Virus record (IMG/VR): IMGVR_UViG_3300020034_000017
Span: 1 to 57,341 of that record
DNA length: 57,341 nucleotides
Reading direction: 5' to 3' (one strand)
Source of the DNA: a virus
Lineage: Duplodnaviria; Caudoviricetes
The position numbers and the translations under genes are program-made. Shown here piece by piece: positions 10,648 through 57,341 of the stretch; the first letter of the stretch is position 1, and every line of letters begins with the position of its first letter. Below the pieces are notes generated by a model. It did not search any database. It was not told the DNA's origin and saw only the letters and a program-made list of their open reading frames with translations.

Positions 10648-10983
10648 GTGATCATCGATGAGAGCACATACCTTGAGCATTTTGGTAAGAAGGGTATGAA
10701 GTGGGGCGTTCGTCAAACTCGCAAAGCCCAAGGCAGAGTAGATCAGTTCAAACGTGTTGCTGAGGGAAAAGGCACTGGAAGAGATCGTCGTGCAGTTAAG
10801 GCCCAAACGAACTTTAGGGATCGTAAAAAGAGCAAAGGTGGCATTGAAAACGCCGCCAAAAAGCGTTTGGACTCGTTGGCTAACTCTCAAGCGAAGATGG
10901 CAGTTGGAAAGAACAAAGTTTCCAACATGTTGATGAAGCTTGAAGGAATCAACATGAAAGATCTCGATTTCAGTCATTCCTAG
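10648..10983 (+). CDS. Basic protein with N-terminal LEHFGKKGMKWG module
   Basis: MIIDESTYLEHFGKKGMKWGVRQ; RBS AAAGGAGG. Confidence 0.75.
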   Translation: MIIDESTYLEHFGKKGMKWGVRQTRKAQGRVDQFKRVAEGKGTGRDRRAVKAQTNFRDRKKSKGGIENAAKKRLDSLANSQAKMAVGKNKVSNMLMKLEGINMKDLDFSHS

Positions 10984-12332: not shown

Positions 12333-12846
12333 GCTTGGAAAAGAGTTCGTTCTTGACCACGGCAATATTCCTTTGTCTCATGTGGAGGAAGTCGTCGCGC
12401 ACTATGCTGAAGGCTATAATCCAGTTAAAGCACGCGAATACTACCTGAAAACAAGAAAGCTAAAGGGAAGAACTGCTGGAATAAAACCAGTTGCCAAAGG
12501 TAGATCGCTTGGCTCTAAGAAACCAGTCGCGTCTGGGATAAAAAACCCAGCACAACATCGAAAGGAGACGCAGGCTAAAGTTGCAGCTCTGAAGCTTCGA
12601 CTTGAAACGCTTCGTGTTGTTCTCGTTAAACTTACGGAGCAGTCAAAAGCTAGTGGCGGTATGGATTTTCCATTGGAGAGACGAATCAACGATGTGTTGG
12701 ATAGACTCGCCGCCACTCGTGATTCTTTGAAGAGATCCGAAACTAGCGCTCGAATCGCTGTTGCTCGTGATTCTTTGAAGAAATCCGAAACTAGCGCTCG
12801 AAAAGAAGCATCGAAACCCACGGCTGCAAAAGGCCGCCGATCCTAA
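12325..12846 (+). CDS. Basic coiled-coil head-region protein
   Basis: VVAHYAEGYNPVKAREYYLKTRKLKG N-terminal motif; internal 16-aa duplication. Confidence 0.65.
   Translation: MNELGKEFVLDHGNIPLSHVEEVVAHYAEGYNPVKAREYYLKTRKLKGRTAGIKPVAKGRSLGSKKPVASGIKNPAQHRKETQAKVAALKLRLETLRVVLVKLTEQSKASGGMDFPLERRINDVLDRLAATRDSLKRSETSARIAVARDSLKKSETSARKEASKPTAAKGRRS
12716..12802 (+). repeat. Intragenic 39-bp direct repeat, period 48 bp
   Basis: CTCGTGATTCTTTGAAGA(G/A)ATCCGAAACTAGCGCTCGAA at 12716 and 12764. Confidence 0.9.
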
Positions 12847-26262: not shown

Positions 26263-26294
26263 AAAGTGAGAGTGCCCACAAGCATTCTCATTTT
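26263..26294 (+). terminator. Repeated terminator hairpin, copy A
   Basis: AAAGTGAGAGTGC-CCACAA-GCATTCTCATTTT. Confidence 0.75.
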
Positions 26295-26298
26295 CTCA

Positions 26299-26323
26299 CG
26301 CAAGTTCTACACGCTCTATTATG
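26299..26323 (+). promoter_or_regulatory. Candidate phage promoter, copy 3
   Basis: CGCA-AGTTC-TACA-CGCTC-TATTAT-G. Confidence 0.75.
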
Positions 26324-26354
26324 AGGAATACCCCTCTACAACCAAGGAGCAATC

Positions 26355-26513
26355 ATGAGTGAAGTCCACGACATCACCGAGACGATCCGGGGCCGCGCCA
26401 CCAAGAGCCGCATCCGCAAGGCAATCGCCTTCGCAGGTGCCGCCCTCGTGGGCGCTGCTGCCCTGGCCGTCGTCGCGAAGAAGTCGACCAACTCGGATAC
26501 CCCCGAGCAGTAG
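26355..26513 (+). CDS. Small single-TM protein (52 aa, cassette gene)
   Basis: RBS AAGGAG; MSEVHDITETIRGRATKSRIRKAIAFAGAALVGAAALAVVAKK... Confidence 0.75.
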   Translation: MSEVHDITETIRGRATKSRIRKAIAFAGAALVGAAALAVVAKKSTNSDTPEQ

Positions 26514-26527
26514 AAGAGCAATCCCCC

Positions 26528-26557
26528 AAAGTGAGAGTCCGCAAGGATTCTCATTTT
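26528..26557 (+). terminator. Repeated terminator hairpin, copy B
   Basis: AAAGTGAGAGTCC-GCAA-GGATTCTCATTTT; compensatory base-pair change relative to the other copies. Confidence 0.75.
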
Positions 26558-26561
26558 CTCT

Positions 26562-26586
26562 CGCATCTTTTACATGGTTTGTTATG
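26562..26586 (+). promoter_or_regulatory. Candidate phage promoter, copy 4
   Basis: CGCA-TCTTT-TACA-TGGTT-TGTTAT-G. Confidence 0.75.
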
Positions 26587-26609
26587 GAACCACTACAAAG
26601 GAGATTCTA

Positions 26610-26726
26610 ATGGCAAAGAGGAAGAAGTACAGGATCCGGAGCTTTCTGTTCGACATCATCATGGTGTGCGCAACAGGAGGCCTCTGGCTTATCTGGATTT
26701 TCTGCCGCGAGTCAAGGAACAAGTAG
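26610..26726 (+). CDS. Small membrane peptide (38 aa, cassette gene)
   Basis: RBS AAAGGAG; MAKRKKYRIRSFLFDIIMVCATGGLWLIWIFCRESRNK. Confidence 0.75.
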   Translation: MAKRKKYRIRSFLFDIIMVCATGGLWLIWIFCRESRNK

Positions 26727-26735
26727 AAGTGATCC

Positions 26736-26765
26736 AAAGTGAGAGTGCGCAAGCATTCTCATTTT
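26736..26765 (+). terminator. Repeated terminator hairpin, copy C
   Basis: AAAGTGAGAGTGC-GCAA-GCATTCTCATTTT. Confidence 0.75.
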
Positions 26766-26767
26766 CA

Positions 26768-26792
26768 CGCAGAAAATACATGCACTGTAATG
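26768..26792 (+). promoter_or_regulatory. Candidate phage promoter, copy 5
   Basis: CGCA-GAAAA-TACA-TGCAC-TGTAAT-G. Confidence 0.75.
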
Positions 26793-26851
26793 AGAAGAAG
26801 ATCTGTCTGTATAGACAGCGCTTCTCTTTTTGTCTCATATTTGGAGGACTA

Positions 26852-29820: not shown

Positions 29821-30698
29821 TGAAATTCGTACCTACAGGTGTGACACGGCTAGTTGGTAAAACCATGTTGCAGACGAAGAAGAACTCGCCGCATATTTTC
29901 TTCGCTGCTGGAGTAACCGGAGTGTGTGTCAGTACGTTTCTCGCTTGTCGAGCAACTCTGAAGCTGGAGCCAGTTCTAGATCAGATGAAGGACAATCTTG
30001 ACAGAGCGAAGCGAAAGCCTGACGTTGCTGAAAGAAACGGAATCGGATATTCTGATTCTGAACATCGACGAGAGATGGCTCATGTGTACTTCCAGGGAGG
30101 CAAAGAACTAGGTAAGCTTTATGGTCCCGCTTTCGTTGTGGGAGCGGCATCCATTACTGCACTCACAGGTTCACATGTTCAGCTTTCTCGTCGCAATGCT
30201 GCTCTCACGGCTGCATACGCTGGTATCGCTCAGGCACTCGAAGAGTACCGAGGGCGTGTCAGGGCGGAGGTCGGCGATGAGAAGGAGAGTGATATTTGGC
30301 TCGGAGTCGAAGAGCAGACTATCACAGATGAAGATGGCAAGAAGCAAAAGATCAAGGTTGCAGCAAATCCGGAGCGTCATTCTCGATTCTTCGATCAGAA
30401 ATGCGGTAACTGGAAGCCAGATCCAGATTACAACCGTTTCTTCTTGCAATCTCAGCAGAACTTCTGGAATCAGCGACTCCATGCCTTCGGGTATGTCTTC
30501 CTGAACGACGTTTACGAGTCACTCGGCTATGAGCGAACCAGCGATGGTCAGCTTCTTGGTTGGACTGTGGACTCAGGGGAAGGCTATATTTCGTTCGGGC
30601 TTGAGGATCATCTGAACGTCAAGAATCGAGATGTTCTGGGATGGAGTCAGCTTCTCACGTTCAACATCGACACAACCGTAATGTACCACAAGATCTAG
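29817..30698 (+). CDS. DUF6353-like protein, paralog 2
   Basis: KNSPHIFFAAG, KLYGPA, QQNFWNQRL..GYVFLNDVYESLG..LGW. Confidence 0.7.
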   Translation: MMKFVPTGVTRLVGKTMLQTKKNSPHIFFAAGVTGVCVSTFLACRATLKLEPVLDQMKDNLDRAKRKPDVAERNGIGYSDSEHRREMAHVYFQGGKELGKLYGPAFVVGAASITALTGSHVQLSRRNAALTAAYAGIAQALEEYRGRVRAEVGDEKESDIWLGVEEQTITDEDGKKQKIKVAANPERHSRFFDQKCGNWKPDPDYNRFFLQSQQNFWNQRLHAFGYVFLNDVYESLGYERTSDGQLLGWTVDSGEGYISFGLEDHLNVKNRDVLGWSQLLTFNIDTTVMYHKI

Positions 30699-30710: not shown

Positions 30711-31574
30711 ATGAACGAGCGCATTGCTCATATTTTCAAGAGCCCCTGGACGATTCCATCGGCTGTTGGCGTTGTTGCGTTCGGAGGAGGTGTTGGTCTA
30801 GGTTATATTCTCGGTAAGCGAAAGGCTGAGAAGGATCTGGACGCGCAGTTTACCAACGTCTCTTACGATGAGGTCAAGGATTACTTGGCAGGTGACGGAG
30901 ACGATGAAGTCCATGAGTTCTTCGACACAGAAGGAATGGCTAGGCAACGAGTGATCATCGACGAAGAGGCATACCATTCTCCAGCGGTTATTCCGGAGAC
31001 GGATGCTGAGATTGGACCAAATGGCGATACCGTCATCGTGCGACCTCAAGACTTCGGCGAGGAGCATCTGGAGGACGATATTTCCGAGAAGTCGTTCGAG
31101 GAAGAGTTGCGAGAAGGCACTCCTCACGAAGACACCGAGGAACCGGATTTCGAGCCTGTTCATGTTAACGTTTTCGATGATGGCAACTGGGATTGGGAGA
31201 TCGAAGTTGCTGCTCGAGAAGCTCTCAACCCCGGCACGCCGTATATCCTGCATCGAGACGAGTTCTACAGAAACGAGTTCGACTACACCCAGACCACACT
31301 CGCATATTACGAAGGTGATGAAACCGTGGTCGTCGAAGGAGAGCAGGAGCCTCTCTTTGATTTCCAAAGGTTGACGGGTGAGCTGAACTTTGGTCACGGA
31401 TCAGGGGATCCAAACGTCGTTCTCATTCGCAACGACGAACGACGAGCCGAGTACGAGATTTGTCGTAACGAAGGACATTTCGCAAAGGAAGTTCTCGGGT
31501 ACGAGGCTGAGCAACGAGCAGAAGCCAAAGACCTGAAGCACTCCCGAGTCGGAAGGTTCCGGGACGAGGACTAA
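30711..31574 (+). CDS. Membrane-anchored acidic protein
   Basis: N-terminal TM (AVGVVAFGGGVGLGYILG); acidic body. Confidence 0.7.
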   Translation: MNERIAHIFKSPWTIPSAVGVVAFGGGVGLGYILGKRKAEKDLDAQFTNVSYDEVKDYLAGDGDDEVHEFFDTEGMARQRVIIDEEAYHSPAVIPETDAEIGPNGDTVIVRPQDFGEEHLEDDISEKSFEEELREGTPHEDTEEPDFEPVHVNVFDDGNWDWEIEVAAREALNPGTPYILHRDEFYRNEFDYTQTTLAYYEGDETVVVEGEQEPLFDFQRLTGELNFGHGSGDPNVVLIRNDERRAEYEICRNEGHFAKEVLGYEAEQRAEAKDLKHSRVGRFRDED

Positions 31575-32106: not shown

Positions 32107-35100
32107 TTGGATTTCTATAACATCGTAATTCGAGAGAATGAGAAGAAAGGTACCCTTCAGATTCGTCCTGATTGGCGAGTAGGTCCATCAAATGATCTAA
32201 TGACTAGGTCTGGTTCGTTCTATGCTGTTTGGGACGAACAGAGAGGACTTTGGTCACAGAACATCTACGATGTGGCACGTCTGGTCGACGCAGATCTCAT
32301 GCGATATTCCAGAGAACAGCAGAAGAAGACTGGGCTACCGTACGACGTAGCTAGGTTGGAGATCAACAGCACAAAGCTGTGGGATGAGTTCCAGAGGTTC
32401 ATCCGTAACAGTGGTAGTAACAGCGTCAATCTGGATGAGCGTCTCGTATTTGCCAACACCGAGGTCAAGAAGACGGATTACGCCTCCAAGCGTCTTTCAT
32501 ATTCTCTCGCTGCTGGTCCATACGATGCATGGGACACCATTGTTGGGACTCTTTTCAATGAAGAGGAACGAGCCAAGATCGAGTGGGCCATAGGAGCAGT
32601 TGTTTCTGGTGATAGCAGGTTCATCCAGAAGTTCCTCGTTTTCTATGGTCCACCGGCCAGCGGCAAGTCCACCATTCTCAACATCATCCACAAGATGTTC
32701 AATGGCTACACAGCAGTGTTCGACGCTCGAGAACTGGCAGCTAGCGGCAACTCGTTTGCTGCATCTGCTTTCAAATCGAATCCTCTTGTAGCCATTCAAC
32801 ATGATGGTGATCTGTCCCGGATATACGACAATACAAAGCTGAACTCAATTGTTGCTCATGAGATCATCCCGATCAACGAGAAGTACAAAGCCGTGGTCGA
32901 ATCTCGATCAAATGCGTTTCTGTTTATGGGAACCAACCTACCGGTCAAGATTTCGGACGCCAAATCAGGCATCATCCGACGTCTGATCGACGTTATTCCC
33001 ACACAGCAGATGATCGAGAACAGTCACTATCATCGTTTGATGGAGCAAGTCAACGGCGAACTTGGGGCAATTGCTCAGCATTGTCTGGACGTATATTCGA
33101 CGATGGGTAGGAACTACTACAGTGGTTACCGCCCAACTGAGATGATGCTCCAGACAGACGTGTTCTACAACTTCGTCGAGGCACACTTTGATATCTTCAA
33201 GGAGCAAGACGGCGTTACCTTGAAGCAAGCTTGGGAGCTCTACAAGACATACTGCCAGGAGACAGGCATCGAGAAGATGCTTCCTCAGTACAAGATTCGG
33301 GAAGAGTTGAAAAACTACTTCTACGTGTTCGAAGAGCGAGCACGCATTGACGGGCACAATGTCCGTTCATATTACCAGGGGTTCAAGAACCTCACTTCCA
33401 CTCCAACCGCCGAGATCCCGATCAAACCAGAAGGCGTCTACGAGATCGTCTTGCAAGAACAACCATCGGTCTTCGACGTACAATATCCTGGGCTGTTGGC
33501 ACAGTACAAGCACGAAGAAGAGGATCGACCTGAGCACAAGTGGATCAATGTCACGACAACGTTGTCGGATATTGACACGTCGAAGTTGCACTATGTCAAG
33601 GTTCCTGAGCAGCATATTGTCATCGATCTTGATCTGACTGACGAAGATGGCAACAAGAGCCTTGAGGCTAATCTGAAGAAGGCAGCAGAGTTCCCACCGA
33701 CTTATGCAGAGGTAAGCAAGAGCGGACAAGGCTTGCACCTCCACTATATCTACACGGGTGACGTTCGAGAACTGGCTTCTGTGTACAACGTTGGAATCGA
33801 GGTCAAGACACTTCTTGGGGACAGTTCCCTGCGGAGAAAATTGACTCTTTGCAACAACATGAACATCACTCCTCTTGACGGAGGTTTGCCTAAGAAGGAG
33901 AAGCCCGTGATCTCGGATAAGAGCATCAAGACCGAAAGGGGGCTTCGTGAACTCATCATCAGGAATCTGCGCAAGGAGATCAATGCGGGCACCAAGCCTT
34001 CTGTCGATTTCATCCATCACATCCTCGAAGAAGCTTACAATTCGGGTATGTCTTACGACGTAAGAGACATGCGAAGTGATATTCTCACGTTCGCTGCCAG
34101 GAGTTCTAACCAAGCTGCAGCGTGTATCAAGCTGGTACAGCAAATGCAGTTTGTTGGGCAGAACTCCATGGAAGAAGTTGAACCGGGGGATGGCCCCATT
34201 GTCTTCTTTGATGTTGAGGTATACCCGAACCTGTTCGTCGTATGTTGGAAAGCTGAAGACTCGGATACGGTCGTACGAATGATCAACCCGGCTCCGAAGG
34301 AGATGGAAGGTCTGTTCGCCATGAAGCTGGTTGGCTTCAACTGCCGGCGATACGACAACCACATCATCTACGCTCGGTATCTCGGATATTCGTTGGAGCA
34401 GCTCTTCGAACTTAGCCAGAAGATCATCGCTGGCGGGAACGACAAAACGATGCTCTTTGGGGAAGCATACAACCTCTCGTATGCGGATATCTACGACTAC
34501 AGTGCCAAGAAGCAAGGGCTCAAGAAGTTCATGATCGAGTACGACGTTCCTCACATGGAACTTGATATTCCGTGGGATGAGCCTGTTCCGGAAGGAATGT
34601 GGGACAAGATTGTAGACTACTGTGTAAACGACGTTCTCGGCACAGAGACTACACACAAAGAACGTAAGCAAGACTTCGTCGCTCGGCAAATCCTTGCCGA
34701 AATTTCAGGGTTGTCTGTCAATCACACGACGCAAGCACACACTGCCAAGATCATTTTCGGTGAGGACAGGAACCCGCAGCGAGCGTTTGTTTACACGGAT
34801 CTGAGTGAAATGTTCCCAGGCTACAAGTTCGATGGAAAGGAGAGTACCTACCGTGGGGAAGTCACTGGTGAGGGTGGTTACGTCTACGCAGAACCCGGCG
34901 TGTATGAAAACGTCGCCCTTCTGGACGTTGCGTCCATGCATCCGACGAGTATCGAGCGTCTCAACCTATTCGGTCCATACACCGAGCGTTTTGCCGATCT
35001 CAAAACAGCGAGAATGGCAATTAAGCGTAAGGATGACGAGGCAGCCGCTAGGCTATTGGGAGGTAAACTCGAGAAGTTTGTGGGCGGCAGCGATGCAGAT

Positions 35101-35859
35101 CGTGAAGCTCTATCGTACGCCCTCAAAATCGTAATCAATACTGTTTACGGTTTGACGAGTGCACGATTTGAGAATGCTTTCCGAGACAATCGCAACAAGG
35201 ACAACATCGTAGCCAAGCGTGGCGCTTTGTTCATGGTCGATCTGAAGGTTGCTGTTCAAGAGAAGGGATTCCAGGTTGCGCACATCAAGACTGACTCCAT
35301 TAAGATCCCGAATGCCAACCAAGACATCATCGATTTCGTTGTCGAATTTGGTAGGCAATACGGTTACGATTTCGAGCACGAAGGAACATATGACAAATTC
35401 ATTCTCGTCAATGATGCGGTCTATATTGCTCGAACCGGAGACAAGTGGACTGCAGTGGGTGCACAGTTCCAACACCCCTACGTCTTCAAGAAGCTCTTCA
35501 CACACGAACCAGTAGTCTTCAATGATTTCTGTGAGACAAAGAACGTCATTCAGGGAGCAATGTACATGGACTTCGTTGGATCCGAGGATCTGAAGGACAT
35601 GGTTCATGTTGGGCGCACTGGTAGCTTCGTGCCAGTCACTGAAGGGGGCGGAACTCTCTGGCGTGTCAAAGACGACAAGAAGTACGCCGTCACTGGCACC
35701 AAGGGATATTCTTGGGTTGTCCGAGACGTTGCTCGAAGCATGAACGATGCTGACATGCTAAACATCGATTCTTCATATTTCGAGGATCTGAAGGCAAAAG
35801 CTATTGAAGCGATCATGCAGTTCGACACACTAGGTGACTTCGAGCAAATCATTTCCTAA
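32107..35859 (+). CDS. Fused SF3 helicase / AEP primase / 3'-5' exonuclease / DNA polymerase
   Basis: Walker A GPPASGKST and MGTN (SF3); IDLD..SKSGQGLHLHY (AEP); FDVEV, GFN..YD, YCVNDV (exonuclease); DVASMHP, KIVINTVYG, KTDS (B-family-like polymerase motifs). Confidence 0.88.
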   Translation: MDFYNIVIRENEKKGTLQIRPDWRVGPSNDLMTRSGSFYAVWDEQRGLWSQNIYDVARLVDADLMRYSREQQKKTGLPYDVARLEINSTKLWDEFQRFIRNSGSNSVNLDERLVFANTEVKKTDYASKRLSYSLAAGPYDAWDTIVGTLFNEEERAKIEWAIGAVVSGDSRFIQKFLVFYGPPASGKSTILNIIHKMFNGYTAVFDARELAASGNSFAASAFKSNPLVAIQHDGDLSRIYDNTKLNSIVAHEIIPINEKYKAVVESRSNAFLFMGTNLPVKISDAKSGIIRRLIDVIPTQQMIENSHYHRLMEQVNGELGAIAQHCLDVYSTMGRNYYSGYRPTEMMLQTDVFYNFVEAHFDIFKEQDGVTLKQAWELYKTYCQETGIEKMLPQYKIREELKNYFYVFEERARIDGHNVRSYYQGFKNLTSTPTAEIPIKPEGVYEIVLQEQPSVFDVQYPGLLAQYKHEEEDRPEHKWINVTTTLSDIDTSKLHYVKVPEQHIVIDLDLTDEDGNKSLEANLKKAAEFPPTYAEVSKSGQGLHLHYIYTGDVRELASVYNVGIEVKTLLGDSSLRRKLTLCNNMNITPLDGGLPKKEKPVISDKSIKTERGLRELIIRNLRKEINAGTKPSVDFIHHILEEAYNSGMSYDVRDMRSDILTFAARSSNQAAACIKLVQQMQFVGQNSMEEVEPGDGPIVFFDVEVYPNLFVVCWKAEDSDTVVRMINPAPKEMEGLFAMKLVGFNCRRYDNHIIYARYLGYSLEQLFELSQKIIAGGNDKTMLFGEAYNLSYADIYDYSAKKQGLKKFMIEYDVPHMELDIPWDEPVPEGMWDKIVDYCVNDVLGTETTHKERKQDFVARQILAEISGLSVNHTTQAHTAKIIFGEDRNPQRAFVYTDLSEMFPGYKFDGKESTYRGEVTGEGGYVYAEPGVYENVALLDVASMHPTSIERLNLFGPYTERFADLKTARMAIKRKDDEAAARLLGGKLEKFVGGSDADREALSYALKIVINTVYGLTSARFENAFRDNRNKDNIVAKRGALFMVDLKVAVQEKGFQVAHIKTDSIKIPNANQDIIDFVVEFGRQYGYDFEHEGTYDKFILVNDAVYIARTGDKWTAVGAQFQHPYVFKKLFTHEPVVFNDFCETKNVIQGAMYMDFVGSEDLKDMVHVGRTGSFVPVTEGGGTLWRVKDDKKYAVTGTKGYSWVVRDVARSMNDADMLNIDSSYFEDLKAKAIEAIMQFDTLGDFEQIIS

Positions 35860-44321: not shown

Positions 44322-44398
44322 GCCTCTGTAGCTCAGTTGGTTAGAGCAGCGGCCTTTTAAGCCGATGGTCGAAGGTTCGAATCCTTCCAGGGGCACCA
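44322..44398 (+). tRNA. tRNA-Lys(UUU)
   Basis: Acceptor GCCTCTG/CAGGGGC, D arm GCTC/GAGC, anticodon loop CTTTTAA, GGTTCGAATCC T arm, encoded CCA. Confidence 0.93.
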
Positions 44399-44424: not shown

Positions 44425-44751
44425 ATGGAAATCGAAGTTCAATACGACGAGACTAGTACCAGCTGGAACCCAAGCGGATCGTACAACCACATGTTCTTGC
44501 TGGCACAGCAGAACTACTTCAACCAAAGGCTCCAGAGCTTCGGTTTTGTGATCCTTAACGAAGTATATGAGGCTCTTGGTATTCCTCGTACGACGCAAGG
44601 ATGCATCACCGGTTGGGTCTTGCTTCACGACGACCATATTGACTTCGGTTTGGATCAGGTGGAGAACTGGTGCGCCGCGACACTGCGTCTGAACGTCAAG
44701 GGGATCATGTTCGGATACATCGACATGATCAACCGGGCGGTGACATCATGA
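44425..44751 (+). CDS. Stand-alone DUF6353-like C-terminal domain
   Basis: QQNYFNQRLQSFGFVILNEVYEALGIPRT..GW aligns with the C-terminus of 29817..30698. Confidence 0.7.
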   Translation: MEIEVQYDETSTSWNPSGSYNHMFLLAQQNYFNQRLQSFGFVILNEVYEALGIPRTTQGCITGWVLLHDDHIDFGLDQVENWCAATLRLNVKGIMFGYIDMINRAVTS

Positions 44752-46303: not shown

Positions 46304-46336
46304 AAAAGTGAGAGTGCTAACAAGCATTCTCATTTT
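46304..46336 (+). terminator. Repeated terminator hairpin, copy D
   Basis: AAAAGTGAGAGTGC-TAACAA-GCATTCTCATTTT. Confidence 0.75.
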
Positions 46337-46340
46337 CGCA

Positions 46341-46365
46341 CGCAGAGCGTACATGCTTTGTAATG
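46341..46365 (+). promoter_or_regulatory. Candidate phage promoter, copy 10
   Basis: CGCA-GAGCG-TACA-TGCTT-TGTAAT-G. Confidence 0.75.
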
Positions 46366-46485
46366 AGAAGAGGAGACCACCCCGATAGGAACCCAATGGA
46401 CAAGCGCCAATCAATGCAAATTGAGAAGGCTCGTAACAAGATCCTGGATGGTAACATCTACTCTATTTTTTCTCTAGGAGGAAAC

Positions 46486-49931: not shown

Positions 49932-50138
49932 GTGAAATCGAACATGCAGTACAGACATTGCGCAGAATCGGGATGCGAAGAGAAGTTCTTCGGTAACCGA
50001 GGCGCGATGATGAAAGCCCACTACTCTGGTTGGTATCTACAAAAAAGTGGAAAAGTGTGGTGTCCAGATCATAGACCTGCATGGGCACCTAAATTTGAAA
50101 AGAGGTCAGATGTACTGGGATCGAGCGCTGAGGATTAG
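49932..50138 (+). CDS. Small Cys/His protein
   Basis: CAESGC..GW..WCPDH. Confidence 0.5.
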   Translation: MKSNMQYRHCAESGCEEKFFGNRGAMMKAHYSGWYLQKSGKVWCPDHRPAWAPKFEKRSDVLGSSAED

Positions 50139-50268
50139 ACCGTGTCTATGTGGTCATGACGAATTTGATCACTCTCAAATCTTGTTCGGAGAACCATGCT
50201 TGGATTGTGACTGTCCTGGATTCATGCATCTATACCGACCAAACCCCAGCGTTAGTCCACGTCAATAG
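50110..50268 (+). CDS. Small Cys/His protein
   Basis: CLCGH..H..C..CDCPGF. Confidence 0.5.
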   Translation: MYWDRALRIRPCLCGHDEFDHSQILFGEPCLDCDCPGFMHLYRPNPSVSPRQ

Positions 50269-50278
50269 GAGGTGAGTC

Positions 50279-50452
50279 ATGGAGTTAAAGCTAGAAGACA
50301 TTCCAGATCCAGAAACAGTTGCTAAAGTGCTGGTCCTTTTGGGTGATGTCATTCGTCCTGAGATGTTTCGTTTATATGACGGAACATTTGAAGCGCGACT
50401 GACTGTAAATCCAGACTTTGCTTTTGCTGCTCTACAACAAAAACCGGTATAA
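50279..50452 (+). CDS. Hypothetical protein (57 aa)
   Basis: RBS AGGAGGTG. Confidence 0.55.
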   Translation: MELKLEDIPDPETVAKVLVLLGDVIRPEMFRLYDGTFEARLTVNPDFAFAALQQKPV

Positions 50453-50463
50453 GGAGGTGATTC

Positions 50464-51672
50464 ATGGAGCTGATGGAACACCAGGAGAAGGTTGTCGACC
50501 AACTGGACAGCGGTAAGATCCTGCACGGAGGCACAGGAAGTGGGAAGTCAGCTGCAGCCATGGCTTGGTATCATCGATACGAGCGACCAAAGCATCTGTA
50601 TGTCATCACCACCGCCAAGAAGCGTGACACTCTGGACTGGGAGAAAATCGCTGCAGCTTTCGGTATCTCTGGGTCGGTCTTTCTGGAAGATGAGGAGTAC
50701 CTGAAGTACGCAGGTGTTCTGACAGTTGATAGTTGGAATAACATTGGAAACTACGTAGATGTTGAGGACGCTGTATTCATCTTCGACGAGCAGCGAGTTG
50801 TGGGATACGGTGCGTGGGTCAAGGCGTTTCTGAAGATTGCTAAGAAGAACCGCTGGATTCTGCTGACCGCTACGCCTGGTGACACGTGGACAGACTACAT
50901 GCCGGTGTTCGTCGCGAACGGTTGGTACAAGAACAAGACGGAATTCGACCGTAAGCACATTCTGTACGAGCCTTTCCGTAAGTATCCGGTGATTGCTGGG
51001 TATCTGAATGTTGGCAAGCTCGAGATGATGCGCAACGAAGTACTGGTCGAGATGCCATACGACATGCACACCGAACGGATGCTGAACTGGCTTCCTGTTG
51101 ACCACGATCTGGAGCTCTTCAAGAGAGCATACAAAGATCGTTGGCATGTGTACGAAGAGCGACCGATTCGTGATGTTGCAGAGATGTTCCGCGTACTCAG
51201 ACGCATAGTCAACTCGGATCTTAGTCGACTGGAGATGATCAGAAAGCTGTTCAAGTGTCATGATCGGTTGATCATCTTCTACAACTTCGACTACGAGCTC
51301 GACATACTGAGGGGGTTGGAAAGCTCGGTATCTGTGTACGAATGGAACGGCCATCAGAAGGATCATAACGTCACATTCGAGGACGAAGATCGCTGGGTTT
51401 ACCTGGTTCAGTACGTGGCTGGAGCTGAGGCGTGGAACTGTACGAAAACAGACGCAATGGTCCTTTATTCCCTTACATACAGCTACAAAAACTTCCTACA
51501 GGCACAGGGGCGAATTGACCGTCTTGACACGCTTTACACTTGGCTCTACTACTACATCCTGATAAGCAACTCAATAGTCGACCGAGGGATCCGAAAGAGT
51601 CTGGATGCAAAAGAGAATTTCAACGAAAGGAAGTTTGTTCAAAAGGAACTAGAAGGAGAATGGGATGATTGA
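50464..51672 (+). CDS. SF2 DNA helicase (SNF2/DExx-like)
   Basis: GTGSGKS, FDEQ, LTATPG, QAQGRIDR motifs. Confidence 0.9.
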   Translation: MELMEHQEKVVDQLDSGKILHGGTGSGKSAAAMAWYHRYERPKHLYVITTAKKRDTLDWEKIAAAFGISGSVFLEDEEYLKYAGVLTVDSWNNIGNYVDVEDAVFIFDEQRVVGYGAWVKAFLKIAKKNRWILLTATPGDTWTDYMPVFVANGWYKNKTEFDRKHILYEPFRKYPVIAGYLNVGKLEMMRNEVLVEMPYDMHTERMLNWLPVDHDLELFKRAYKDRWHVYEERPIRDVAEMFRVLRRIVNSDLSRLEMIRKLFKCHDRLIIFYNFDYELDILRGLESSVSVYEWNGHQKDHNVTFEDEDRWVYLVQYVAGAEAWNCTKTDAMVLYSLTYSYKNFLQAQGRIDRLDTLYTWLYYYILISNSIVDRGIRKSLDAKENFNERKFVQKELEGEWDD

Positions 51673-52141
51673 AGAATGGGTGGTTATTGAGGAGGCATCA
51701 AACTATCTGGTAAGTAATCTAGGTAGGGTCTATAGCAAAACTACCAATAGAATTCTCAAGCCGGGTATGGGTGGTCAAGGAGCCTACCCGTTTGTTGTTC
51801 TTTCAAATGGGGGTCCACAGTTCAACCGATATGTACACGTGCTAGTCGCCGAAACTTTCGTTACGAATTGGGACAACAAACCCGAAGTTAATCACATCGA
51901 CGGCAATCATACCAACAATGAATACTGGAACCTAGAATGGGCAACCCACAAAGAAAACATGGAGCATGCGTCCATAATGGGTCTAATGGGAAAAAGGGTG
52001 AAAATTGTCGAAACTGGCGAGGTTTTCAAGAGTTTGACCGCTTGTGCGCGTGCCATAAACGGGCAGCCAGGAAACATAAGTCACTGTTTGAGTGGCCGAA
52101 GAAGGTCACATCGAGGTTTTACGTTTGAATTGATAGACTGA
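51665..52141 (+). CDS. NUMOD4-HNH homing endonuclease with C-terminal NUMOD1-like domain
   Basis: YLVSNLGRV, VHVLVAETF, VNHIDGNHTNN..NLEWAT..EN, FKSLTACARAI. Confidence 0.85.
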   Translation: MIEEWVVIEEASNYLVSNLGRVYSKTTNRILKPGMGGQGAYPFVVLSNGGPQFNRYVHVLVAETFVTNWDNKPEVNHIDGNHTNNEYWNLEWATHKENMEHASIMGLMGKRVKIVETGEVFKSLTACARAINGQPGNISHCLSGRRRSHRGFTFELID

Positions 52142-52288
52142 AATGGAGATGAAATAGTGATGTCCAATTCTTCCGACTTTGGCATACGATTCAGATTTGA
52201 CAAACGTGGCACCGATGGGATTATACTGAAGTACACTAAAAAGTCGCTGAAATAGGGTCTTTATGTGTACATACGGTACATTTCATAG

Positions 52289-52431
52289 ATGTGTCAAATC
52301 TGATCGATTTAGAGCTAAAAACTCTCTACTACAGAACCTACTACATACGCTCTTTTCCTGCCCGCGTAAAGGAAGTAAGCGTATGTAGTGCGATCTTCAC
52401 TAGAGAGTTTTGGATTATGGATTTGACACAT
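52289..52431. repeat. Nested long inverted repeat (candidate origin/cruciform)
   Basis: ATGTGTCAAATC/GATTTGACACAT, AAAACTCTCTA/TAGAGAGTTTT, ACTACATACGCT/AGCGTATGTAGT, TTCCT/AGGAA. Confidence 0.75.
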
Positions 52432-52472
52432 TATTTGACACACGAGTCTAACCACACCAAATTGGAGGCGAA

Positions 52473-52772
52473 ATGGGACTTCTAAACGAATTAATCTTTA
52501 CTGAGGCAGTTGAGCAGGTTCAGGCGATTCTCACGTCTCAGAGCTCCGACGAGATTAGCGATCGTCTGGAAGCGATTGTCAAGATCGAGGATTTGGCACT
52601 GGCGTGCCTCATGTTGCTAGCTATGAAGGCTAAGGGTATTGACATATCTGATGCTAATGGAATTGAGATGGCAAACGCCCAACCAACAATCGCGGATCTC
52701 ATCATTGCTAGTCCAGGAACACCTATCGACGCATATGTGATTCTACCATCGAGAGGAGGACAACATGAGTAA
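52473..52772 (+). CDS. Hypothetical protein
   Basis: RBS TGGAGG. Confidence 0.6.
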   Translation: MGLLNELIFTEAVEQVQAILTSQSSDEISDRLEAIVKIEDLALACLMLLAMKAKGIDISDANGIEMANAQPTIADLIIASPGTPIDAYVILPSRGGQHE

Positions 52773-53268
52773 TCCTTCATGGAGCAGAATTCCAGAGTTT
52801 CCAAACTACATCATCAATGACCGTGGTGAGATCTTCAATCTATCCGCAGATCAGTACATGCGTGTCTATCCAAATACGTATGGACACATGAGAATCACTT
52901 TGACCAATGTCGAAACCGGTAAGCGGTATGATCGTGGAGTTGCTAAACTCGTTGCAGAGGCCTTTGTAGAGCCACCTAACGATCTCTGCACTCGTGTCAT
53001 GATACTCGATGGGCAATTGTTCCACGTAAGTGCTCAGAACCTCGTGTGGCGGCCAATGTGGTTTGTCATGCGATACTCTCGGCAATTGAAACGAGATCAT
53101 CCAGCTCACTATAGTAATCTTCGAATCAAGAACGTCGAGACAGGTAAGCGATACGACAACATCATTGAATGTGCTATGGCCGAAGGTCTTCTCTTTGACG
53201 ATGTCTGGAGATCAACTTTCAGTGGTGCAAAGATCTTCCCATATGGTGATACCTTCGAGATTGTCTAA
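52765..53268 (+). CDS. NUMOD4-domain protein with degenerate HNH site
   Basis: WSRIPEFPNYIINDRGEI, VAKLVAEAFV, NLVW; catalytic His replaced. Confidence 0.65.
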   Translation: MSNPSWSRIPEFPNYIINDRGEIFNLSADQYMRVYPNTYGHMRITLTNVETGKRYDRGVAKLVAEAFVEPPNDLCTRVMILDGQLFHVSAQNLVWRPMWFVMRYSRQLKRDHPAHYSNLRIKNVETGKRYDNIIECAMAEGLLFDDVWRSTFSGAKIFPYGDTFEIV

Positions 53269-53279
53269 GCGTATGTCCT

Positions 53280-53304
53280 GGCACGCAAAACATGTATTGT
53301 AATG
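53280..53304 (+). promoter_or_regulatory. Candidate phage promoter, copy 12 (variant), heading the operon that contains the RNAP gene
   Basis: GGCA-CGCAA-AACA-TGTAT-TGTAAT-G. Confidence 0.6.
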
Positions 53305-53359
53305 AGGGAGAGTCGCAAATTGATTCTCTTCACACCCTTTCTCTTTTTTCGGAGGCTTG

Positions 53360-53662
53360 ATGGTTTGTTCGAGAGCAGAAACAGTCTATCAAGCTGACCT
53401 AATCAAGAGAATAGAGCGCCTTCTTCCTGATTGTATGGTGTTCAAGATGGATCCAGACCAGTATCAGGGAATTCCAGACCTTCTTGTTTTGTTTGAGGAC
53501 AAGTGGGCTGCGCTTGAGGTGAAAGTGAGTGCTTCAGCAGAAGTTCAACCAAATCAAGAGTGGTATATTGACAAGTTTGCGGAGATGTCGTTTGCGGCAT
53601 TTATCTATCCTGCGGTTGAGGATCAAGTACTTGAAGAGTTGGTAACTAGGCTAGCTTCGTAG
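53360..53662 (+). CDS. VRR-NUC / Holliday-junction-resolvase-like nuclease
   Basis: E..Q..GIPDL..ALEVK..QPNQ. Confidence 0.8.
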   Translation: MVCSRAETVYQADLIKRIERLLPDCMVFKMDPDQYQGIPDLLVLFEDKWAALEVKVSASAEVQPNQEWYIDKFAEMSFAAFIYPAVEDQVLEELVTRLAS

Positions 53663-53671
53663 AGGAGAGTC

Positions 53672-54232
53672 ATGGATTTTCACTCCCACCCAGAACTGGC
53701 TGGCAGACATGCTTTCCTAGGGCCAAGTAAGTCTAGCTGGTTGCGGTACAATGATCAGAAACTAGAAGCTCGTTTTTATGCTGCTCAAGCAGCTAGAATA
53801 GGAAGCGACAAACACGAGCTTGCTAGAAATGCAATTCGCCTAGGCATCAAGATAGACAGAAGATCCAATCCCTCATTGGCTGCCTATGTTGCTGATGCTC
53901 TTGCCTACAAGATGCGTTGCGAACAACCCCTCTACTACTCAGACAACTGCTTTGGGACAGCTGACGCTATTTCCTTCCGTAGAGGGAAACTCAGAATTCA
54001 CGATCTCAAAACTGGGATCACGAAAACATCATTTGAGCAGCTCGAGGTGTATGCCGCACTCTTCTGTCTAGAGTATGGCATCGATCCGTTCGACATTGAA
54101 ATCGAGCTTCGCATTTATCAAAGAGAGGACATGGATGTTGTACAACCTATTCCGGAGAAAATTCTCCAAATCATGGAAACCATCGTTGCCTTTGATCGTC
54201 AAATCAACATCATAAAGGAGGCTAACTGGTGA
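53672..54232 (+). CDS. PD-(D/E)XK exonuclease (DUF2800/Cas4-like)
   Basis: HAFLGPS, EQ.L, FGTADAI, IHDLKTG, QLEVYAA. Confidence 0.8.
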   Translation: MDFHSHPELAGRHAFLGPSKSSWLRYNDQKLEARFYAAQAARIGSDKHELARNAIRLGIKIDRRSNPSLAAYVADALAYKMRCEQPLYYSDNCFGTADAISFRRGKLRIHDLKTGITKTSFEQLEVYAALFCLEYGIDPFDIEIELRIYQREDMDVVQPIPEKILQIMETIVAFDRQINIIKEANW

Positions 54233-56982
54233 TCATCGATGAAGAAGAACATCTTGCTCACTATGGTATCCTCCGCCGTTCAGGCCGTTGGCCTTGGGGT
54301 AGTGGTGAGGGTAGTGGCACACAGTCCGGCAGGAACAAGAAGTTCCTCGATTTTGTTGAGAGCATGAAGAAGCAGGGTCTTTCGGAACAAGAAATTGCTT
54401 CCGGACAAGGGATCTCGGTTACTCAAATCAGAGCAGCCAAGACCTATGCCAAAAATGAGCAAAAGCAACAGCAGATTGCTATGGCTCAGAGACTCAAAGA
54501 CAAGGGTTTGTCCAATCCAGCCATTGCTGAGAGAATGAATCTTGCTGGAGAATCCTCGGTTCGGGCACTCCTCGAGCCAGGAGCCAAGGACAAAGCTGAC
54601 ATTCTGATCAGTGTGTCTAACATGCTGAAAGAGCACGTCGATGAGAAGACATACGTGGACATCGGTAGTGGTACCGAAACACATCTCAAGATCAGCAAAG
54701 AGAGACTTGCTGCAGCAGTCTTTGTTCTGGTCGAACAGGGATATGAAGTTCACGTTGTGCCTGTTCCTCAGATTGGTACTGGGTTCAACACAAAGACCAA
54801 GGTTCTTGTGCCTCCTGGTGTCTCTCAAAAGGACGCTTTCATCCATCGGTATGAGATCAAGCAGATCTCGACGTTCACTGAGGATGGTGGTCGACACTTC
54901 GCCAAGCAGCATCCCATCGTCTCGATTCATCCCGACCGTCTTGCGGTTCGGTATGCTGAGGATGGTGGCGGTAATGCTGATGGTGTGATCTACCTCAGGC
55001 CCGGTGTCAAAGAACTTTCCATGGGTAAGGCAAACTACGCTCAAGTTCGAATTCAGGTTGGTAAGGACAAGTACCTCAAGGGTATGGCGATGTACAAGGA
55101 TGATCTTCCTCCTGGTACAGACATCGTGTTCAACACCAACAAGTCTAAGGCCGAGTATCCGGACAAACTTGACACGTTGAAGAAACTGTCTAAGGACAAG
55201 GATCTTCCTTTTGAGTCTGTTACTCGTCCCGTTCTTCTCGATGCTCACTCACCCAAAGAAAGGGTTGAGTCTGCAATCCACAAGGTCAACGAAGAAGGCG
55301 ATTGGAACAACTGGTCGGATAGTTTGGCTAGTCAAGTTCTGGTAAAACAAAGTCCTTCTTTGATCAAACAACAGCTGGACATTAGTCATGATCGTCGTCA
55401 AAAAGACTTCGACGACATCATGAAACTTACCAACCCTGCCGTAAAGAAGAAGCTTTTAGAAGACCTTGCTGATTCTGCTGATTCTGCAGCGGTACATCTA
55501 AAAGCAGCCGCTCTTCCAAGGCAGTCGTGGAAAGTAATTCTTCCCATTGAATCGTTGAAGCCTGGAGAGATCTATGCCCCAACGTACAACAATGGCGAAA
55601 AGGTAGTTCTAATTCGGTACCCGCATGGTGGTACGTTCGAGATTCCTGAAGTGACTGTGAACAATAGACATGGTCCCTCTAGGAAGATGTTGCGGGATAC
55701 TGAGGATGCCATTGGCATCCATCCTGAGGTTGCTCAGAGGTTGTCTGGTGCAGACTTTGATGGTGATACGGTTCTTGTGATTCCCAACCCTCAGGGTAGG
55801 GTCACTAGTACACCAAAATTGGCTCAACTCAAAGGCTTTGATCCTCAGAAAGACTATGCACCTTATGATGGTATGCGTACCATTGATGGTGGTGTGTACA
55901 ACGCTAAGACTCGGAAGGTCGACTATGGGGACAAGCAACCCATGCGTAGTCCTAAAGAGATGGAGATGGGAAAGGTTTCCAATCTAATCACAGACATGAC
56001 TATTCGTGGTGCCCCTCATGATGAGATTGCTCGTGCAGTCAAACACTCCATGGTTGTGGTCGATGCAGAGAAGCATCATCTAGACTTCAGACGGTCTGCC
56101 ATTGACAACGGGATTCCTAAACTTAGGGCTACCTACCAGAGCGAGCATAAGGACAACAAGAGGCCAGGTGCCTCCACCCTCATCTCGAGACAGGGTAGTA
56201 CTGTTAGAATCCCTGAGCTTAAGGGTCAACCGAACTTTCCTCAAGGTGCACCGATTGATAGGGCTACAGGTAAGAAGCTTCAGATCCCTACAGGTAGGAC
56301 CAAGCGAGATAGGGCAGGGCAGGTAAGCGTTACTACTAGGGAGTACAAGAAGCTAGACCTTACGGATGATGCACACACATTGTCCTCTGGTACTAGGCCT
56401 GAATCTCTTTATGCTGATTACTCTAACAAGCAGAAGGCTCTTGCCAACCGCGCTAGAGTAGAAGCGTTTAAGACCCCCCCCGTCCAATGGAGTCACTCTG
56501 CCAAGAACGTTCATAAAGCAGAAGTAGCCTCCCTCGATGCTAAATTGGCCCTCGCCAAGAAGAACCGCACCCTTGAACGCCATGCACAGGTCATCGCTAA
56601 TGCTCAGATCAAGGCTAAGCGTGATGCTAATCCCAATCTTGATGGAGATTCCCTCAAGAAGATCAAGTTTCAAGCCCTTGCTGATGCACGTACCCGCACC
56701 AAAGCGGATCAGACAAAGATTGAGATCACACCTAAAGAATGGGATGCTATTCAAGCAGGCGCCATCAGTAACAACAAGCTAACCCAGCTCCTAGCTAAGG
56801 CTGACATGGAGAAGGTTAGAGAGCTTGCTACCCCCCGTCCCAAGGTGTTGATGAGTACATCTAAGACAGCCCAGGCCAAACAGCTAGCGTCATTGGGTTA
56901 CACTAGGGCCGAGATTGCAAGTCGGCTTGGTGTATCAATCAAGACGTTGGATCGAGCTATCAACGAAGAGGAAGGTGGGTGA
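54229..56982 (+). CDS. Putative single-chain two-barrel (YonO/RdRP-like) RNA polymerase with terminal HTH motifs
   Basis: ADGVI, AQVRI, YLKG (first barrel); IRYPH and LSGADFDGDTV (second barrel, metal-binding DxDGD); VDAEKH; HTH-like segments at both termini. Confidence 0.8.
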   Translation: MIIDEEEHLAHYGILRRSGRWPWGSGEGSGTQSGRNKKFLDFVESMKKQGLSEQEIASGQGISVTQIRAAKTYAKNEQKQQQIAMAQRLKDKGLSNPAIAERMNLAGESSVRALLEPGAKDKADILISVSNMLKEHVDEKTYVDIGSGTETHLKISKERLAAAVFVLVEQGYEVHVVPVPQIGTGFNTKTKVLVPPGVSQKDAFIHRYEIKQISTFTEDGGRHFAKQHPIVSIHPDRLAVRYAEDGGGNADGVIYLRPGVKELSMGKANYAQVRIQVGKDKYLKGMAMYKDDLPPGTDIVFNTNKSKAEYPDKLDTLKKLSKDKDLPFESVTRPVLLDAHSPKERVESAIHKVNEEGDWNNWSDSLASQVLVKQSPSLIKQQLDISHDRRQKDFDDIMKLTNPAVKKKLLEDLADSADSAAVHLKAAALPRQSWKVILPIESLKPGEIYAPTYNNGEKVVLIRYPHGGTFEIPEVTVNNRHGPSRKMLRDTEDAIGIHPEVAQRLSGADFDGDTVLVIPNPQGRVTSTPKLAQLKGFDPQKDYAPYDGMRTIDGGVYNAKTRKVDYGDKQPMRSPKEMEMGKVSNLITDMTIRGAPHDEIARAVKHSMVVVDAEKHHLDFRRSAIDNGIPKLRATYQSEHKDNKRPGASTLISRQGSTVRIPELKGQPNFPQGAPIDRATGKKLQIPTGRTKRDRAGQVSVTTREYKKLDLTDDAHTLSSGTRPESLYADYSNKQKALANRARVEAFKTPPVQWSHSAKNVHKAEVASLDAKLALAKKNRTLERHAQVIANAQIKAKRDANPNLDGDSLKKIKFQALADARTRTKADQTKIEITPKEWDAIQAGAISNNKLTQLLAKADMEKVRELATPRPKVLMSTSKTAQAKQLASLGYTRAEIASRLGVSIKTLDRAINEEEGG

Positions 56983-56991
56983 TGAATCAAG

Positions 56992-57285
56992 ATGATAGAG
57001 CACATGCTCACAACAGATGACAACCCCCACGATCCTTTCGTTGATTGGGATGCCTGGTATGCTTTTGATGAGCGTGCTGGGTACCACACCACCGCCTACC
57101 TGGGTAGAGTAGTTGTAACTTCAGATGAATTGTCTGAGACCGATCAGCAACTTGCAATTGAGAGAGCAATCGATGAGATTGTGGAGATGAACGTACTCGG
57201 TATCTACAAGAAGGTGTCGAGTAAAGCGGGAGTTGGATCTGAGAAACCAGAGGAAGCTCAGATGATCGAGGAAACTTCTGCTTAG
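56992..57285 (+). CDS. Conserved hypothetical protein
   Basis: MLTTDDNPHDPF..WYAFD..GYHT..YL.R motif. Confidence 0.7.
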   Translation: MIEHMLTTDDNPHDPFVDWDAWYAFDERAGYHTTAYLGRVVVTSDELSETDQQLAIERAIDEIVEMNVLGIYKKVSSKAGVGSEKPEEAQMIEETSA

Positions 57286-57297
57286 GAGGTATGGCTT

Positions 57298-57340
57298 TAC
57301 ATAGGGGGGGAGGGGTCGCAAAGACTACCCCCCTTATGTA
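57298..57340. other. Right-end inverted repeat
   Basis: TACATAGGGGGGG...GTC-GCAAA-GAC..CCCCCCTTATGTA. Confidence 0.55.
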
Positions 57341-57341
57341 T

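Follow-up and report, generated by a model that had tools for sequence, protein, structure and literature searches.

A probable single-chain RNA polymerase of a metagenomic tailed phage and its possible delivery in the virion

Introduction

Does a phage that encodes a compact RNA polymerase also carry this enzyme into the cell inside its head? The question is raised by the final large gene of IMG/VR record IMGVR_UViG_3300020034_000017, a viral DNA of 57,341 bases that was analysed at full length and is termed here the window (CheckV completeness estimate 95%; topology linear according to IMG/VR). All large open reading frames (ORFs) of the window lie on the + strand. A preliminary description had proposed that the 917-residue product of this gene is a single-chain RNA polymerase of the double-psi-beta-barrel class, that it bears an N-terminal tag in common with small head-region proteins and that a repeated promoter-like motif completes a transcription system. 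The analysis reported here makes the enzyme assignment very probable and adds indications that the polymerase may be a virion component. We put the reading as a whole, virion presence included, at a probability of about 0.5.

A probable single-chain two-barrel RNA polymerase

The ORF was found as described, and every motif attributed to it (RYPH, GADFDGD, DG, Q.R and KG) was located along the chain (Table 1). In an alignment of 44 relatives at 55–85% identity, which was also the input to the AlphaFold model (AF2) and to a profile search of PDB, the invariant residues include D251, G252, Q272, V273, R274, K284, G285, R463, P465, H466 and the run from S506 to D513. Against PHROG profiles the protein matches phrog_4291 ('RNA-dependent RNA polymerase') from end to end, with residues 4–914 covering positions 7–908 of a profile of 909 (E 0, 1159.8 bits). 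Eight residues are common to all two-barrel polymerases, a set that in QDE-1 includes D709, R738, K743, R962 and P964 according to the available passages of PMC2919709. The window protein has candidates for these eight in the same number and order: D251, R274, K284, R463, P465, D509, D511 and D513. Judged by motif order, D251, R274 and K284 are candidate equivalents of D709, R738 and K743 of QDE-1, with a different spacing.

The AF2 model has a mean predicted local distance difference test (pLDDT) of 78 and a predicted template modelling (pTM) score of 0.62, with low confidence only in residues 1–30 and a few loops. Foldseek comparison of this model with PDB, which the preliminary description had named as a check, recovered the two-barrel fold. 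At E<=0.001 there were 22 matches, headed by ten QDE-1 chains (best E 1.8e-9); these are followed by the polymerases gp64 of phage P32 and gp62 of phage P74 (7.4e-6), plant RDR2 and bacterial beta-prime subunits, and gp66 of a crAss-like phage appears at E 0.04. The Foldseek probability is 1.00 for QDE-1, P32 gp64, P74 gp62 and RDR2. A structure search of BFVD returned phage 'RdRP' entries (RNA-dependent RNA polymerase) and protein A7XX94 of P23-45; YonO was absent from the PDB and BFVD structure matches listed.

Some results speak against the assignment. The Pfam family RdRP (PF05183) aligns with residues 500–617 only, at 17.7 bits and E 0.0015, and does not reach its gathering cut-off of 23.8. 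The 44-sequence profile retrieved no polymerase from the PDB sequences, only a helix-turn-helix (HTH) repeat protein, and it was this outcome that made a fold search necessary. Furthermore, the TM-scores of the Foldseek matches are low (0.22–0.32), global superposition being poor despite the probability of 1.00, so that the structural match rests on local fold and motifs and not on global superposition. Backed by the fold, the invariant motifs and the end-to-end PHROG 4291 match, the proposal of a double-psi-barrel enzyme nevertheless holds: the protein is very probably a single-chain two-barrel RNA polymerase, of a family that is already in print. It is likely to serve as a phage transcriptase, one that would use DNA as template for the transcription of phage genes.

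HTH modules on either side of the catalytic core probably supply promoter binding. The C-terminal module, in addition to its HTH_23 match, resembles Sigma70_r4_2 (E 3.4e-5, 23.8 bits, under the cut-off of 25.7). Pfam matches in the N-terminal helical region are weak, namely HTH_38 at residues 87–104 (E 0.004) and GerE at residues 92–106 (E 0.09).

Family size and earlier descriptions

The polymerase reading is not a discovery. The homologue in Lactococcus phage 1706 was classed as YonO-like in 2010, and the actinophage family has been a 'putative RNA polymerase' since 2021. In the passages available, Ruprich-Robert & Thuriaux (2010; PMC2919709) list the 1706 protein among five YonO-like families, and Koert et al. 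(bioRxiv 10.1101/842583) present a 'HTH domain-containing protein' as a possible RNA polymerase, pointing to an HHpred match to Pfam RdRP (95.7%), DxDGD, motifs of the YonO and crAss type and HTHs at either end. The same passages of these two papers make no mention of an N-terminal tag, virion packaging or promoters. A literature search for DUF7211 (the Pfam family discussed below), the GMKWG motif and packaging of this polymerase family found no paper, and the literature searched contained no bench-tested member of the family.

Homologues are widespread. By tblastn they were identified in 250 phage records at 33–53% identity, with coverage of at least 80% in 249 of them; the hosts comprise Arthrobacter (95), Gordonia (55), Streptomyces (54), Lactococcus (13) and others. 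The polymerase of the window is at most 53% identical to any record of the phage collection. In metagenomes the family amounts to at least 8000 clusters at 90% identity (E<=1e-10) and to 835 clusters at 50% identity (E<=1e-30). With the PHROG 4291 family, which spans an actinophage supercluster, Lactococcus phage 1706 and Faecalibacterium phages, the window copy has in common the end-to-end profile, the right-end position, DxDGD, R-x-P and two HTHs; it displays no structural difference and is a metagenomic relative of that family.

The N-terminal tag and its likeness to DUF7211

The polymerase opens with a 26-residue tag in which H11, Y12, G13, R16, S18, G19, R20, P22 and W23 do not vary among the 44 aligned sequences. 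The AF2 pLDDT across residues 1–30 is 54/42/53, and such disorder fits a short linear motif with a binding partner. The first 50 amino acids are matched in 251 phage records. Of 268 relatives that are 800 amino acids or longer, 232 carry the relaxed anchor SGR[YFW]x[WYFLHK]G in their first 80 residues.

A six-frame search of the window yielded four occurrences of [MVL]I[IVL]D[ED], three of which open ORFs (nucleotides 8095, 10648 and 54229) and are succeeded by L-x-H-[YF]-G and, further on, W-G. No other ORF of the window opens with IIDE followed by L-x-H-[YF]-G. The start of the polymerase gene has the GTGATCATCGATGA opening in common with the two small tagged genes, whose products match Pfam DUF7211 (PF23847; E 2e-9 and 2e-8), an entry for which no function is recorded. 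When a profile of 232 polymerase N-termini was aligned by hhalign with 29 DUF7211 modules, the probability was 94.3% and the score 28.6 over 14 columns (acidic-x-x-L-x-H-Y-G-x). In a column-shuffle control none of 200 shuffles reached 28.6, the maximum being 16.4; the relation of the first half (acidic-x-x-L-x-H-Y-G) to DUF7211 is therefore not due to chance. Sub-threshold DUF7211 matches to the polymerase N-terminus are present in Kenosha and ReqiPoco6 (E 0.002 and 0.005; 14.1–14.6 bits; profile positions 5–13).

At their 5' ends (8096-8160 and 10649-10713; repeat family D8) the two small tagged genes are 86% identical over 65 nucleotides, and the remainder diverges, which suggests a recent duplication or gene conversion of the tag. 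The fourth occurrence of the opening pattern, at nucleotide 30951, is inside ORF 30711-31574. The DNA at 30946-30981 (repeat family D4), which encodes VIIDEEAYH, is 69–75% identical to the 5'-terminal parts of the three tagged genes and may be a remnant or a chance resemblance.

DUF7211 modules in the head arm

A Pfam scan of the window detected four DUF7211 modules only, all of them in the head arm. The two-module ORF at 7220-8098 is the positional and architectural equivalent of orf7 of phage 1706, which lies between HNH and terminase genes. Five polymerase-bearing phages contain 1, 4, 3, 9 and 6 modules, without exception in the left (head) arm, the nine of Arthrobacter phage Qui corresponding to nine genes; among further polymerase carriers phage 1706 has 2, ReqiPoco6 7 and Bifidobacterium phage BitterVaud1 2 modules in the head arm. 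Altogether modules are found in nine of nine polymerase-bearing records examined, always in the head arm, and in none of three records that lack the polymerase. The nine records probably belong to one lineage, so that this pattern reflects shared inheritance and not independent association. In the five phages and the window the module mostly falls in the initial ~25 residues of ORFs of small or medium size, with the exception of internal copies in two-module proteins and of the long relative P0132. The DUF7211 peptide is conserved in at least 13 PHROG families.

The capsid protein of this lineage is fused to its prohead protease, and the linker of the fusion contains four conserved L-x-H sites in 36 aligned sequences (LEH at ~residue 153, H191, H266 and H296). 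H296 is invariant and directly precedes the capsid core GI.DID.LFPDA. Analogously, the linker of phage 1706 displays five [IL]-[TK]-H sites, the final one again ahead of the capsid core. The presence of L-x-H both in the tags and at the linker sites would fit a trimming of tagged proteins by the prohead protease. The middle residue of L-x-H exhibits no co-variation between linker and tag. Complex prediction for tag residues 1–40 with the protease domain and the capsid core, run on the window sequences without alignments, gave a score of 0.00 and weighs neither way.

A promoter-like motif

The preliminary description had claimed a promoter-like motif in 12 copies. Eleven matches to CGCA-N5-WACA-N7-TWATGR were confirmed, all on the + strand between 26025 and 53305, where 0.02 would be expected by chance. 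The rightmost copy heads the run of endonuclease, exonuclease and polymerase genes. The search of the window located no copy in 1–25 kb and none after the polymerase gene. The motif also lies upstream of polymerase genes in five related viral contigs. As the polymerase gene stands behind a copy, its own expression would depend on the enzyme if the polymerase reads the motif, and the first molecules would have to come from elsewhere.

A canonical sigma-70 reading of the motif was rejected, the spacing between the boxes (5 and 7 nucleotides) being too short. At 26263-26796 and 46305-46367 there are four copies of a ~63-nucleotide unit composed of a GC-rich inverted repeat and the promoter-like motif (family D2); these units are terminator-promoter joints between small genes.

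Long fused relatives

In the long relative P0168 a complete Pfam portal domain (E 2.9e-29) is followed by a 660-residue linker and then by the polymerase core from residue 116 onwards, residues 1–115 being absent. In P0201 and P0273 a related extension of ~1050 residues replaces the tag. An enzyme fused to the portal C-terminus would be located within the head. When IMG/VR was scanned with P0168, ordinary polymerase genes alone were returned, and a metagenome scan with P0273 yielded no relative. In BLASTP the portal part of P0168 did not match the portal of the window, nor did the P0273 extension match the ORF that follows the portal gene in the window, which makes the fused lineage a distant head type.

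Two further architectures were noted. P0275 (2020 residues) consists of the N-terminal half of a tagged polymerase (PHROG profile positions 8–553) and the C-terminal two-thirds of a tape-measure protein (phrog_4372, 622–1675), and could be a tail-tape fusion like that of P23-45 or an assembly chimera. P0132 and P0148 have ~167 extra N-terminal residues, with a domain similar to 2'-5' RNA ligase / 2H-phosphoesterase, ahead of the tag; in P0132 the match to PF13563 (E 3.2e-6) is just over the 27-bit cut-off and the tag lies at residue ~172.

Evidence on presence in the virion

In GenBank record EU081845 (Lactococcus phage 1706) the depositors label as 'structural protein' both orf75, the polymerase homologue (38% identity class), and orf7. 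The latter protein carries two DUF7211-like modules. The labels reportedly originate from virion mass spectrometry. The portal-polymerase fusion P0168 and the motif copy ahead of the polymerase gene are two further indirect points for packaging, and the half-match to DUF7211 speaks for a role of the tag in it.

A number of observations pull the other way. In EU081845 orf62 and orf71 are designated structural as well, although neither has the tag; the designation therefore does not track the tag. The label given by the 1706 depositors is the sole experimental root for virion presence, as that on the homologues of ReqiPoco6 and ReqiPepy6 was assigned by similarity only. The likeness of the tag to the head-region proteins, claimed at the outset, stands for the three ORF openings and for the hhalign half-match and fails beyond them: the polymerase N-terminus has no match to Pfam DUF7211 at E<=10 (cut-off 27 bits), and after HYG it continues with ILRRSGRWPWGSG and not with xKGMKWG, so that only the first half aligns and SGRYPWGSG differs from GMKWG. 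The polymerase gene adjoins replication/recombination genes, and phage annotators list its product as a DNA-binding protein. The exact motif was not found in the 50 kb of phage 1706 searched. Finally, each of the five long forms is a singleton or near-singleton known from a single contig, the portal-polymerase fusion being one metagenomic sequence, and two of them join a truncated DNA polymerase or tape-measure protein to a truncated polymerase and look chimeric, which lowers the trust that can be placed in the portal fusion.

On balance, the presence of the polymerase in virions appears to us an evenly poised question. That the tag acts as a loading signal for the head is possible, at somewhat less than an even chance.

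Proposed mechanism and rival explanations

If the enzyme is packaged, the tag motif would dock it into the assembling head together with the small basic DUF7211 proteins, whose genes surround those for terminase and portal, and the prohead protease fused to the capsid protein might trim this motif at L-x-H. The polymerase would then enter the cell with the phage DNA and start transcription at the CGCA-N5-WACA-N7-TWATGR sites, one of which stands at the head of its own operon. We offer, as a tentative synthesis that is doubtful in its entirety, that DUF7211 and the variant borne by the polymerase are a modular cargo address for an HK97-type head without a separate scaffold. This address would be read in the procapsid, trimmed at L-x-H by the capsid-fused protease and used to load a changing set of basic proteins plus a self-sufficient polymerase with sigma-like HTHs. 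A very large lineage extending from phages of Actinobacteria to those of Firmicutes would in this manner inject a complete, host-independent transcription starter, and a side lineage would instead tether the catalytic core covalently to the portal.

The main rival to virion packaging is a polymerase made after infection from transcripts of the host polymerase, which takes over middle or late transcription like YonO of SPbeta and gp64 of P23-45; its tag would bind another partner, for example a host factor, a phage regulator or the DNA-packaging machinery. Such an enzyme would suit the location of the gene in a replication/recombination block, beside the exonuclease and endonuclease and outside the head module, and a non-virion polymerase of the P23-45 type is among the top structural matches. 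The failure of the polymerase N-terminus to match DUF7211 points in the same direction, as do the structural genes in 1–25 kb, which lack the motif and for which another promoter class must exist. The depositors' structural label on the 1706 homologue and the significant half-match to the head-arm tag speak against it. Moreover, a polymerase gene headed by the motif would need a host promoter, and sigma-70-like sites in 50000-57341 number 7, compared with 9.2 expected. We regard this alternative as less probable than packaging.

It is improbable that the common N-terminus has no common function and arose merely through recombination or gene conversion of the 5' ends of phage genes, for example of a translation-initiation region. 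Confinement of the 86% nucleotide identity between the small genes to their 5' ends and the same opening at the polymerase start are in keeping with such an origin, and the small proteins of other phages begin with MSxxVDDFL rather than with the polymerase-type IIDE prefix. The tag is nonetheless invariant as protein across relatives of 41–85% identity whose hosts range from Actinobacteria to Lactococcus, and the DUF7211 peptide is kept across its many PHROG families; conservation at this level speaks for selection on the peptide and not on the DNA. The chances are slimmer still for a protein that is no transcriptase at all, be it an RNA-dependent RNA polymerase, a primer-making enzyme or a DNA-binding regulator derived from a polymerase. 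Databases do name the protein 'RNA-dependent RNA polymerase', its top structural match QDE-1 has RNA- and DNA-templated activity as far as the available passages tell, and the gene adjoins replication genes. Against this, the catalytic residues are all invariant, which excludes a dead regulator. A separate large gene, putatively of polymerase/primase type, is located at 32107-35859, a reading made through phrog_4210 and the primase PHROG matches of the N-terminal part of the fusion protein P0274, and YonO, a characterised relative from a bacterial virus, is DNA-dependent in the portions of the literature at hand. We know of no need of a double-stranded DNA phage for an RNA-templated enzyme.

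Most of the 250 cultured phage genomes label the family member only as a DNA-binding protein. Should packaging prove true, common siphoviruses of soil, dairy and gut would join N4, crAss-like and P23-45 phages in carrying a transcription starter, and their enzyme, compact at 100 kDa, and its short peptide address would both be open to study and reuse. If the polymerase is not packaged, the window adds one more copy of an already predicted enzyme. The locus thus represents a known enzyme family joined to a plausible delivery hypothesis.

Comparison with known systems

QDE-1 of Neurospora crassa (PDB 2J7N, 7Y7P) is, like the window polymerase, a single chain with two barrels, DxDGD and R-x-P. 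Identity between the two is 12–13% and the TM-score 0.27–0.32. QDE-1 has neither HTH modules nor an N-terminal tag and acts in RNA silencing, not in phage transcription. YonO is not known to be packaged. In the accessible part of Forrest et al. (2017; PMC5467207) it is described as a ~100-kDa single-chain two-barrel DNA-dependent RNA polymerase of SPbeta. The likeness of the window enzyme to YonO runs via the literature: the 1706 homologue was grouped with YonO-like proteins, yet the 1706-type and YonO-type are separate, distantly related families in the passages seen of PMC2919709.

Virion RNA polymerases, including that of phage N4, are the functional model for an enzyme delivered with the phage DNA to transcribe the first genes. 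The enzymes of crAss-like phage phi14:2 (gp66, PDB 6VR4, E 0.04) and of P23-45 (8F72/8F5M, 7.4e-6) have a two-barrel fold like that of the window polymerase, and for P23-45 a tape-measure-fused polymerase is reported in the available section of bioRxiv 10.1101/2022.12.01.518664. The known virion polymerases have been demonstrated in virions and are far larger (gp66 has 2166 residues) or fused to a tail protein, whereas the presence of the window polymerase in virions is a hypothesis. It is free-standing with a short tag, and P0168 is its only portal-fused relative.

Internal proteins of phage T4 carry capsid-targeting sequences. DUF7211 is likened to these signals by analogy only, as a short N-terminal peptide on unrelated, mostly basic proteins encoded beside packaging genes; the T4 signals have no sequence relation to DUF7211 or to the tag.

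Gene neighbourhood

The features of the polymerase gene, its neighbours and the head arm are collected in Table 1. A Shine-Dalgarno sequence AGGAGG lies 8 nucleotides 5' of the GTG start of the polymerase gene, and this GTG overlaps with the stop codon of the exonuclease gene ahead. The endonuclease and exonuclease neighbours recur in RosaAsantewaa, ReqiPoco6 and 1706. The small ORF 3' of the polymerase gene has positional counterparts in orf76 of 1706 and gp107 of ReqiPoco6. Among the matches listed, the polymerase gene ends at most 700 nucleotides from the right genome end in 38 of 40 records. After cos joining the lysis, packaging and head genes would follow immediately downstream of it in the same orientation; this arrangement, together with the lack of motif copies in 1–25 kb, makes a late co-expression of the polymerase with the head genes possible.

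Table 1. Coordinates of the polymerase gene, its sequence features and other genes of the window
Feature	Position	Strand	Details
Single-chain two-barrel RNA polymerase gene (very probable)	54229-56982	+	917 amino acids; GTG start; stop included; final large gene of window
N-terminal tag (VIIDEEEHLAHYGILRRSGRWPWGSG)	54229-54306	+	residues 1-26; predicted disordered, highly conserved
N-terminal helical region with HTH-like segments	54322-54648	+	residues 32-140; AF2 helices 32-48, 53-60, 64-91, 96-102, 108-114, 125-140
ADG ... QVRI ... KGM block	54976-55086	+	ADG 250-252, QVRI 272-275, KGM 284-286
RYPH, R-x-P strand ahead of catalytic loop	55615-55626	+	residues 463-466
GADFDGD metal-binding loop	55747-55767	+	residues 507-513; DFDGD 509-513
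C-terminal HTH	56875-56976	+	residues 883-916; HTH_23 E 1.9e-6, 27.9 bits, cut-off 24.6
Rightmost motif copy	53280-53305	+	1 mismatch; heads endonuclease-exonuclease-polymerase run
Endonuclease-like gene, same run, 5' of polymerase	53357-53662	+	phrog_93 E 7.8e-12
Exonuclease gene, same run, 5' of polymerase	53672-54232	+	phrog_3953 E 9e-69
Conserved 97-residue ORF 3' of polymerase gene	56992-57285	+	phrog_4303 E 1.5e-35
Head-region protein, two DUF7211 modules	7220-8098	+	modules at nucleotides 7223-7294 and 7721-7774; E 6.6e-13, 4.1e-12
Basic 173-residue protein, opening MIIDESTYLEHYGQKGMKWG, DUF7211	8095-8616	+	isoelectric point 10.6
Basic 111-residue protein, opening (M)IIDESTYLEHFGKKGMKWG, DUF7211	10648-10983	+	isoelectric point 10.5; AGGAGG 7 nucleotides upstream
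Portal protein	11022-12332	+	phrog_12 E 3.4e-36
Prohead protease-major capsid protein fusion	12862-14883	+	PF04586 and PF05065 on relatives

For the 173-residue protein GTG 8086 is a possible start, ATG 8095 being likelier. The ORF after the portal gene (12307-12846) matches phrog_12541, a family of unknown function; it includes a tandem duplication of 48 nucleotides (12704-12799), and close to the N-terminus of its product there is a stretch L-S-H ... V-A-H-Y. Within the gene for the 1629-residue tape-measure protein three tandem units of 124 nucleotides (20401-20878, family D1) are 66–76% identical and recur with a period of 174–180. Two genes far apart share a 98-nucleotide direct repeat (30429-30526 and 44482-44579, family D6) at 70% identity, which suggests that the early region contains paralogues. 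Annotated tRNA-Lys genes from Microbacterium and Streptomyces phages match the stretch at ~44322-44396 with 85–88% identity.

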